Source: Promethearchaeota archaeon (GTDB taxonomy: Archaea; Asgardarchaeota; Lokiarchaeia; Sigyniarchaeales; SOKP01). Taken from it: DNA of 64,000 bases. Location: the NCBI GenBank assembly GCA_019058365.1, contig JAHPZE010000002.1:1-64000 (forward strand), written 5' to 3'. The position numbers and the translations under genes were made by a program. Shown piece by piece: positions 23,029 through 41,305 of this stretch. The notes beneath the pieces were generated by a model. The model did not search any database. It had not been told where the DNA came from and saw only the letters and a list, made by a program, of their open reading frames with translations. Position 1 is the first letter of the stretch. Each line of letters starts with the position of its first letter.

Positions 23029-23185
23029 GGCCCTTGACGGTCGGAATTGCTTTTAGATCGTATCGATCTGCAACGATAAGTGGTCTCTGACGCTGGGCTT
23101 CAAACCCAGTTATCCTGCGGAGGGGTAGGAGTTCGATAACGGTTAGAAATAATCTGATCTTCGAAAATCTCCTCGAGGGCCGCCA
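23029..23185 (+). tRNA. selC: tRNA-Sec (UCA) with two BHB introns (23046-23079 in the D-arm; 23138-23167 in the T-loop); CCA encoded; 93 nt mature
   Basis: 9-bp acceptor GGCCCTTGA/TCGAGGGCC, 7-bp D-stem with TGGT loop after splicing, 6-bp anticodon stem with TCA at 23100-23102, long variable arm, 4-bp T-stem, G73; directly upstream of SepSecS. Confidence 0.95.
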
Positions 23186-23218
23186 TTATATCAAAAAAAT
23201 AATTACATTGTGTTTTCA

Positions 23219-38734: not shown

Positions 38735-39330
38735 TTAATCACCTCTTAAGATGTCATCAAATTCCCCTTTATCTATTTTTTTTTGGATAGCTCTTGGATC
38801 TTGTCCTTCTACTGTTAACCCCACTGATAATGCTGTTCCTAACACTGTTTTTATGCCTGCTTTAATTGTTTTATCTAAAAATTTATCTCTTTTAGCCTTC
38901 ACTACATTTTGAACTTGATCAAGTGTCAAATTTCCTATTTTTGTTTCTGAACAACTAGCACTCCCTTTTTCAACACCTACCTCTTTCAGCAATAATGATG
39001 CAGTAGAAGGTGTTTCTATAAAAATTTCAAATTGCTTTGTCTCCGGATCACATTCAATTCTAACGGGTACGGTTAGTCCCCTAAATACCATTGTCTGCTT
39101 GTTGATTTCGTCAACCACATCTTTAATATGTGCATCGAAAATCGAAATAATTTTCGTTTATGCCTGTGGGACCAACAGCAGGACCTTTACCATAATTTGA
39201 CAAAAGCGATATGCTTTATGCAATAGGCGGCCCTCCTGATGCATTTGGGGTCTAATCGAAATGATTATTAAAGATATACACTCCCACCAGTCACAAGAGC
39301 CTTTACAACAATTTTTCCTTTTTCACTCAC
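38735..39330 (-). CDS. rpl11: 50S ribosomal protein uL11, four exons (39330-39281, 39243-39223, 39186-39158, 39129-38735); 164 aa after splicing
   Basis: Joined exons give [46 protein letters not shown]..., the canonical uL11 N-terminus, in frame with the 39118 ORF; GTG start 6 nt after GGTGA. Confidence 0.92.
39130..39157 (-). other. rpl11 pre-mRNA intron 3 (28 nt, near-canonical BHB)
   Basis: Central GCAU/AUGC, intron helix CGAAAAU/AUUUUCG, bulges AA^A and AC^A. Confidence 0.9.
39187..39222 (-). other. rpl11 pre-mRNA intron 2 (36 nt, relaxed BHB)
   Basis: Exon helix AGGGCC/GGUCCU, central GCCU/UGGU (3 of 4 paired), bulges AU^U and AA^A; contains in-frame TAA. Confidence 0.82.
39244..39280 (-). 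other. rpl11 pre-mRNA intron 1 (37 nt, relaxed BHB)
   Basis: Central helix UGGG/CCCA, bulges AG^U and AA^U; frameshifting and contains in-frame TAA. Confidence 0.85.
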
Positions 39331-39385
39331 ATACTCTCACCGTTTTTTTTAATAATTCTTGGTTTAAAAAATATCCTAAAAGGTA

Positions 39386-39943: not shown

Positions 39944-40627
39944 TTAATCCCCTTCTTCTAAGATTACCTTATGTGCTATTTTACCAATTTTTTCTATCGA
40001 TGCTTCAATTAAGTCTCCTGGTTGAATCGGGCCTACTCCACTAGGAGTTCCAGATGCAACAATATCTCCAGTGAATAATGTGACAAATTTGGAGAGATAT
40101 GAGAGAATTTCAGGAATTTTGAAAATCATATATTTTGTATTTGATTGTTGACGAACTTCTCTATTAATTTGTAATTTAATATTTAAATTATGAGGATCTT
40201 CAATCTCACTAAAAGGTACAATTCTCGGGCCAATTGGTCCAAATGTATCGAAATTTTTGCTTCTATACCATGGTAAATTAATATTTCTATCACTTATCTG
40301 CATTTTCCTCGCGGTTATATCTAGAAAAATAGTGTATCCTTCGATATATTCATGAGCGTGCTCAATTTGAATATTCTTACATTTCTGAGAAATTATAAAT
40401 GCTAATTCTACTTCGTGATCTACTTGATTATATTCTTGACTATCATACAGTATTTTAGGATAGATAATTGGATTCCCATCAGTCACCAATGTATTTACAG
40501 TTTTCCCGAAGAATACTGGATCTTTTGGTACTCGTGCCTTCATCTCCCTTGCATGATCTACATAATTACGTCCCAAACAAATTATTTTTGTAGGACTTAT
40601 CTCATTTTCTCCAATTTTGATAATAAT
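39944..40627 (-). CDS. Fumarylacetoacetate hydrolase family protein (copy 2); N-terminus extends to ATT/ATC near 40627
   Basis: TKIICLGRNY..H, VDHEVELA, RSKNFDTFGPIGP, GDIVASGTPSGVG. Confidence 0.9.
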   Translation of the reverse strand: MIIKIGENEISPTKIICLGRNYVDHAREMKARVPKDPVFFGKTVNTLVTDGNPIIYPKILYDSQEYNQVDHEVELAFIISQKCKNIQIEHAHEYIEGYTIFLDITARKMQISDRNINLPWYRSKNFDTFGPIGPRIVPFSEIEDPHNLNIKLQINREVRQQSNTKYMIFKIPEILSYLSKFVTLFTGDIVASGTPSGVGPIQPGDLIEASIEKIGKIAHKVILEEGD

Positions 40628-40630
40628 TTT

Positions 40631-41305
40631 TCATTCACCTTCCATAACTACTTTATTTGTAAGCGTTCCTATCTTTTCTATTGTTGCTTCAATAAGATCG
40701 CCTGGTTGTATAGGCCCAATTCCACTTGGAGTTCCTGTAGCTATAATATCTCCAGGCTCAAGGGTAAAAAATGTCGTAATATACTCCATAAGTTTGGGAA
40801 TTTTGAATAATAGATGCTTAGTATTAGAAAATTGTTTAATCTCTCCATTTAACATCAATTCAATATTTAAGTTATGAGGATCTTTGATTTCATCAGTATC
40901 AACTATTCTTGGACCTATCGGCCCAAAAGTATCAAATGATTTAGAACGAAACCATGGTAATTTAGATACTATATCTATTGCTTGCATTTTTCGTGCAGTA
41001 ATATCATTAAATATTGTATATCCAAGAATATAGTTATATGCTTCATCTTTTGGAACAAATTTACATTTATCTTTTATAATAAATGCCAATTCTACCTCAT
41101 AATCCACTCTATTATATTTGTGTTGGTTAAATAAAAATTTAGGATAAATTATCGGCTCTCTATCTGAAATCAGGCAGTTTAAAGTTTTTGGAAAAAGAAC
41201 CGGCTCTTTTGGAATGTTCAAACCTGTTTCTTCAATATGGTCCATGTAATTTGTACCGATGCAAATAATCTTCGTCGGATTTATCGTTTGGAGCCCAATT
41301 TTCAT
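40631..41305 (-). CDS. Fumarylacetoacetate hydrolase family protein (copy 1)
   Basis: KIICIGTNYMDH, VDYEVELA, NDITAR, GDIIATGTPSGIG. Confidence 0.93.
   Translation of the reverse strand: MKIGLQTINPTKIICIGTNYMDHIEETGLNIPKEPVLFPKTLNCLISDREPIIYPKFLFNQHKYNRVDYEVELAFIIKDKCKFVPKDEAYNYILGYTIFNDITARKMQAIDIVSKLPWFRSKSFDTFGPIGPRIVDTDEIKDPHNLNIELMLNGEIKQFSNTKHLLFKIPKLMEYITTFFTLEPGDIIATGTPSGIGPIQPGDLIEATIEKIGTLTNKVVMEGE

Follow-up and report, generated by a model that had tools for sequence, protein, structure and literature searches.

Three predicted bulge-helix-bulge introns in the ribosomal protein uL11 gene of a Lokiarchaeia-type archaeon and their patchy distribution among relatives

How a complete ribosomal protein uL11 could be made from an rpl11 gene that is interrupted three times was the question raised by the window, the 64,000-nt stretch of DNA analysed here. 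The window genome (G000) is a Lokiarchaeia-type (Asgard) MAG of 4.74 Mb (100% complete, 6.6% contamination). Its rpl11 (39330-38735, minus strand) is the first gene of the usual L11-L1-L10-L12 cluster and is divided by three inserts (37/36/28 nt) into four exons of 50/21/29/395 nt (Table 1). An earlier sequence-only reading had described the inserts as tRNA-type introns with bulge-helix-bulge (BHB) motifs; its coordinates, insert lengths and peptides were exact on rechecking.

Table 1. Features of the predicted split rpl11, and inserts in other genes of the same genome (window positions unless a contig is named)
Feature	Position	Strand	Description
Shine-Dalgarno-like GGTGAG(A)	39335..39341	-	5' of the GTG start, read from sequence; present in many congeners
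Exon 1	39281..39330	-	50 nt; GTG start at 39330; 3' end = helix strand UGGG + bulge AG
Intron 1 (predicted)	39244..39280	-	37 nt; after CDS nt 50, within Ser17 codon; HBh' motif; hairpin loop AUUUC
Exon 2	39223..39243	-	21-nt micro-exon, ASGGPPI
Intron 2 (predicted)	39187..39222	-	36 nt; after CDS nt 71, within Ile24 codon; relaxed hBH/BHL; loop AUAUC
Exon 3	39158..39186	-	29-nt micro-exon, GPAVGPTGI
Intron 3 (predicted)	39130..39157	-	28 nt; after CDS nt 100, within Asn34 codon; HBh'; loop AUUUC
Exon 4	38735..39129	-	395 nt; remaining uL11 N-domain + RNA-binding C-domain, then stop
lsrF insert	C9:585	-	motif GVDMGRN
AMP phosphorylase insert	C9:32935	+	motif DKHSTGG
Activase-like gene insert	C26:18160	-	motif NDKCAAGTG

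Unspliced translation stops after 20 codons, as had been stated, and partial splicing gave 20-44 aa. When the 8 splice combinations were compared, the frame was open only with all three inserts removed; cuts after the second base of the 3-nt bulges (the EndA rule) restored it at every junction and yielded the 164-aa uL11 that had been claimed. Intron 2 has a frame-preserving length but contains a stop. The spliced product includes the GGPPIGP motif and was 89% identical to the intact protein P0007, which has both uL11 domains (PF03946 and PF00298); no identical full-length protein was present among the 120 homologues listed (best 89%). Exon 4 alone matched the N-domain only at profile positions 27-58. 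An intact second rpl11, which together with exclusively unspliced transcripts would, according to the sequence-only reading, have pointed to a pseudogene here, was not found in the 4.74-Mb genome by Pfam N-domain search and tblastn. Membership in the cbf5 intron family (cbf5, catalytic Asp codon) was ruled out, the host gene being rpl11.

The splice motifs bore out the earlier description for introns 1 and 3, in which the central helix is complete (4/4) with 3-nt bulges; for intron 2 the helix had been slightly overstated (GCCU/UGGU, 3/4 paired, with a U-U mismatch). Intron 1 (HBh') has the central helix UGGG/CCCA, bulges AG^U and AA^U, a short intron-side helix and a weak outer exon helix. 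Intron 3 (HBh') has GCAU/AUGC, bulges AA^A and AC^A and an 8-bp intron helix, and its splice motif was the minimum-energy fold (z = -3.2). In intron 2 the intron-side helix is absent next to the bulge and a 6-bp exon-exon helix is present, which gives a relaxed hBH/BHL motif; the 3' half of exon 2 supplies both this exon-exon helix and the central helix. The three motifs have no bases in common and formed together at P = 0.68/0.94/0.88 (introns 1/2/3) when pairing partners were kept within 70 nt of each other. Under unrestricted folding of the rpl11 5' region, motifs 1 and 3 were displaced by long-range pairs, and the isolated intron 1 fragment took its minimum-energy fold in a shifted register (z = -0.44). 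These folds disfavour the motifs, so splicing probably relies on RNA that folds locally during transcription or on an induced fit brought about by the enzyme. Rfam models gave nothing at gathering score within the window.

The genome encodes two EndA paralogues and RtcB (on contig C35, E = 2e-170). The EndA subunit on C26 aligned best with A. pernix EndA α (E = 1e-35) and has Tyr-His-Lys at the catalytic positions, and the alignment places a Lys at A. pernix K44 of the specificity loop. The subunit on C12 is without the catalytic His and is probably the structural β subunit. Relaxed HBh'/hBH motifs are removed only by (αβ)2 and ε2 endonucleases with a specificity loop (PMC5829648), and the host EndA is predicted to be of the (αβ)2 type, with the broad-specificity loop Lys, and able to cut relaxed motifs. 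In the explanation proposed here, each insert and the exon sequence beside it would form a local BHB, strict or relaxed; this EndA would presumably cut in vivo between the second and third nucleotides of every 3-nt bulge, and RtcB would join the exons into a 164-codon uL11 message.

The alignment of rpl11 across Lokiarchaeia that had been suggested earlier was run on 81 distinct loci (30 congeneric loci plus named GTDB loci from Promethearchaeota/Lokiarchaeia MAGs). Inserts were found at 37 loci, 47 in all and at four fixed sites only: CDS nt 50 (n = 15), nt 71 (n = 12), nt 83 (n = 5) and nt 100 (n = 15, L132 included). An apparent fifth site at nt 97 in L132 was a misplacement of site 100. 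Among the congeneric loci, 14/30 were uninterrupted and 16/30 had one to three inserts. All 47 inserts were frame-shifting or stop-containing, and all 37 carriers could be spliced to 164-165 aa at the predicted BHB cuts. Insert lengths were 28-38 nt, and the cut fell inside the positions allowed by homology, which were unique at 50 (L021), 71-72 (L018/L025) and, as a common range, 100-101. Interrupted uL11 N-domains were confined to the Lokiarchaeia family of the window genome in the 151 genomes of the phylum sampled; broken matches outside it were rejected as a contig end (G081) and an intact N-terminus (G065). Three introns in one rpl11 occurred only in the window genome and its sister G005. 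A Lokiarchaeia-type rpl11 was also seen on a contig labelled as an actinobacterial Nanopelagicaceae MAG (L103, DATKTW010000004.1), a probable mis-binning.

The splice geometry was conserved across these loci. Complete central helices were present in 15/15, 6/12, 5/5 and 14/14 carriers at sites 50, 71, 83 and 100, against 1.0, 0.1, 0.1 and 0.2 expected from shuffled introns, the carrier counts including kin and thus not to be taken as probabilities. In 6/12 site-71 carriers the helix is 3/4 paired, as it is in the window genome. At site 50 the helix was paired in 100% of cells; its first pair varied on both sides (U-A, A-U, U-G), with U-A replaced by A-U on both sides in 4/12 sequences. None of 500 shuffles matched the observed pairing, and slid registers were 26-69% paired versus 95%. 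Site 100 was 94% paired with little variation, and its covariation was weak (24/500 shuffles reached the score). Site 83 (L095, L097, L099, L126, L127) had a canonical hBHBh' motif with varying helix pair types. Among the 30 congeners, the exon-side helix codons were fixed in carriers (UGGG 6/6 vs 0/24, GCCU 6/6 vs 1/24, GCAU 10/10 vs 2/20).

If the gene were instead decaying or truncated at its N-terminus, only the C-terminal 118-127 aa would be made, from an internal GTG or ATG, or uL11 would be dispensed with. Public gene calls do give 118-127-aa products, and uL11 can be deleted in several bacteria. Exons 1-3 of carriers, however, had pN/pS of 0.03-0.29, and the codons 5' of intron 3 in intron-3 carriers 0.07-0.14, both similar to intronless genes; such purifying selection on the upstream exons argues against a dead N-terminus. 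No further lesion blocked the 164-165-aa product in the 37 carriers, and decay is also made very improbable by the confinement of the inserts to four sites, where splice geometry and compensatory base changes are seen. Ribosomes might alternatively hop each hairpin by translational bypass or frameshift on unspliced RNA. Small hairpins of this kind and the bypass elements (byps) known from other systems would fit that reading, yet the rpl11 inserts lie inside codons (phases 2, 2 and 1), those at site 50 (28, 32, 36, 37 and 38 nt) span all three frames, and what is conserved is the 4-bp exon-intron helix with 3-nt bulges, the EndA substrate; recoding is accordingly hard to credit. Assembly error, a concern for a MAG with this level of contamination, has practically no standing: all three inserts were repeated with 2 mismatches in G005 (= NCBI CAYPFJ01) and in eight full-length JGI/Logan contigs from separate samples, and variants occur in dozens of other genomes.

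By their testable features, on sequence grounds, the three inserts are most probably BHB introns of the EndA-spliced kind, and the rpl11 mRNA of the window genome is very probably spliced three times. The proposal of a multi-exon housekeeping mRNA with 21- and 29-nt micro-exons is supported by fixed sites, frame restoration at every insert length, covariation, selection, single copy, enzymes and assemblies. An exact search for the spliced junctions in assembled JGI contigs gave no match, in a collection that may hold no RNA assemblies of the species. The near-identical intronless contigs L136 and L147 were considered as transcripts and rejected, since they are or look like DNA alleles.

While the gene-level description held, the sequence-only reading did not include the polymorphism of the introns or their apparent movement between lineages. 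Carriers were scattered in a tree of the exon-4 columns, and sister genomes differed. In AU tests, carrier monophyly was rejected at sites 50, 71 and 100 (p < 1e-34); at site 83 the carriers were compatible with one clade. Between the window genome and G029, 47 consecutive exon nt were identical and intron 1 matched at 36/37 bases, yet 74/330 positions differed further down. For the window genome and G021, 27/28 intron bases were identical, and in both genome pairs the distal third (synonymous) positions agreed at only 55-67%. In the clearest case, two JGI contigs close to the window genome, L135 with introns 1 and 2 and L148 with intron 3 only, had 0 mismatches in nt 3-43 and 81-149 and 16 in nt 44-80, where introns 1 and 2 differ; the window genome and L148 had 12 differences in nt 44-71 and shared intron 3 with one base different. 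Identical exon runs of at least 30 nt around the site were found in 33%, 18% and 9% of distant carrier pairs versus 0.4%, 1% and 0.1% of non-carrier pairs (33% vs 0.4% at site 50), the pair counts coming from related sequences that are not independent.

The simplest reading is that the introns move together with 30-50 nt of exon flank via gene conversion. They would be passenger elements, carried from lineage to lineage through recombination or gene conversion, and the co-moved flank would deliver the exon half of the splice motif. Because of the tract sharing, the allele of the window genome is probably a mosaic in which an imported intron-1+2 block was combined with an intron-3 background. 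Homing archaeal rRNA introns, group I introns and inteins are known for LAGLIDADG endonucleases, insertion in conserved motifs, patchiness and co-conversion of flanks. The rpl11 introns resemble them in their highly conserved motifs, patchy and non-monophyletic occurrence and co-converted flanks. Unlike homing elements, they are non-coding, being too short (28-38 nt) to encode an endonuclease, and a search of the DNA within 3 kb of rpl11 at 78 loci (LAGLIDADG motif, carrier-linked ORF family) recognised no endonuclease gene. The driver of spread could be a trans-acting enzyme or plain recombination. LAGLIDADG_3 matches in the window genome, none of them near rpl11, were C35:94711-94959 (-), in a ~220-aa open frame and a candidate free-standing endonuclease, and C35:57540 and C46:49485, in longer frames and perhaps inteins.

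The same patchiness could arise if splicing is real and ancient introns were lost many times, for example via spliced cDNA. The lack of a recognised endonuclease near rpl11 fits such a history, as does L136: it is 98% identical to the carrier L111 and is without intron 3 but still has the codons GGC ATA of carriers, as precise loss would leave it. Repeated loss is nevertheless unlikely as the whole explanation, though it keeps some weight: near-identical introns occur where other synonymous sites have diverged, the mismatch clusters of close pairs are limited to the intron region, and strong selection on the hairpin may account for some of the identity between introns, though not for the runs of identical synonymous codons outside the motif. 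Intron loss also occurs or may occur (L136 vs L111), and both lateral spread and loss may be at work.

A loop of the form Y-R-N-N-U-C-G at the hairpin tip was found in 38/47 distinct rpl11 introns at all four sites, versus 2.4 expected from shuffles, introns of the same site being related. A loose genome-wide scan for the loop was swamped by chance matches; a strict scan gave 3 ORF-joining matches versus 0 in the reversed control, of which two were credible. Comparison of two 400-kb stretches of relatives with the window genome recovered the three rpl11 inserts blind. It also picked out BHB-like inserts of 30-32 nt, missing in a relative, in lsrF, an AMP phosphorylase gene and an activase-like gene (Table 1), as well as two inserts, of 34 nt in the D-arm and 30 nt in the T-loop, in a tRNA-like gene at ~23029-23186 (+) of the window. 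This gene, with a UCA anticodon and a long variable arm, was missed by ARAGORN and Rfam; in our reading it appears tRNA-Sec-like. With inserts in these four genes, rpl11 would be part of a genome-wide habit. A zinc-ribbon gene (CxxC...CxxC, 58926-58727, -) encodes 56 aa once a 29-nt hairpin (58825-58797) is removed; the insert is found in G031, G006 and G008 with varied, still paired sequence, its loop is NUNUC and its helix 3/4, and an intronless orthologue was not seen. A loop similar to that of rpl11 caps the AMP phosphorylase and zinc-ribbon inserts and not the lsrF insert. The shared loop may reflect common origin, it may stabilise the hairpin, or it may be bound by a protein. This Lokiarchaeia family may well host a population of tiny non-coding mRNA introns that are spliced by the tRNA machinery, bear this loop, spread laterally and stack in housekeeping genes, and for such a population the loop points to common origin or a recognising factor.

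In the archaeal literature searched, cbf5 is the only coding-sequence case (PMC2738675, PMC7714728), and in line with the earlier claim of novelty no report of Asgard mRNA introns was found, subscription papers lying largely outside the search. The cbf5 pre-mRNA of Desulfurococcales and Sulfolobales has one BHB intron at one site, confirmed by cDNA (Yokobori 2009, PMC2738675). Like it, the rpl11 introns are short and BHB-like, lie in a conserved coding motif and show patchy gain and loss (PMC2738675), with a predicted cut between the second and third bulge base and a hetero-oligomeric EndA. In contrast to cbf5, rpl11 appears to have several introns (three), micro-exons, a ribosomal protein gene as host, four family-wide sites, an Asgard host and apparent mobility with signs of lateral co-conversion; its introns are known here from sequence, those of cbf5 from cDNA. 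The BHB intron in the 5'-UTR of Haloferax HVO_1309 is processed by EndA, was found as a circle and was cut in vitro, and cbf5 was named as the only other mRNA case (PMC7714728). Unlike the rpl11 introns, it is outside the reading frame (PMC7714728) and so is not needed to restore a protein. Non-canonical tRNA introns, including those of Asgard tRNAs, have HBh'/hBH motifs, with several per gene and repeated gains (bioRxiv 10.64898/2026.10.13.758758; PMC5829648). The rpl11 inserts share their size class, relaxed motifs and (αβ)2 EndA, and the tRNA in the window has two such inserts, but the rpl11 introns sit in mRNA. The Asgard tRNA-intron preprint focuses on other Asgard classes, does not contain the words 'mRNA' or 'cbf5' and found no general arrival route (bioRxiv 10.64898/2026.10.13.758758).

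If rpl11 is spliced as predicted, a prokaryote would have a protein gene with several exons, and that gene, central to translation, would depend on three EndA/RtcB reactions that would have to outrun coupled translation. Splicing within archaeal coding sequences, confirmed for the single gene cbf5, would then also take in housekeeping genes of Asgard archaea, with a natural precedent for mRNA splicing of the IRE1/RtcB type. If a population of mobile introns does exist, organisms related to the ancestor of eukaryotes would have eukaryote-like multi-exon messages that include micro-exons. How introns are gained and spread, a question left open in the 2026 Asgard tRNA preprint (bioRxiv 10.64898/2026.10.13.758758), can be tested on the presence/absence alleles and the conversion tracts. 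At ~45% of the loci examined, gene callers cut short uL11, which is widely used as a phylogenomic marker.

The leader of rpl11 (~39475-39385, -) is structured and was conserved in 20/20 genomes aligned. It consists of a CUAAG/CUUAG hairpin, a short CGC/GCG stem, with a two-sided change to UA in 3 genomes, and a 9-bp hairpin; it had no Rfam match and is a candidate autoregulatory leader of the L11-L1-L10-L12 operon. Just 5' of the leader lies a conserved 61-aa ORF (39720-39535), for which no Pfam hit is recorded, and a tandem pair of fumarylacetoacetate-hydrolase-family ORFs occupies 39944-41305 (-) of the window.
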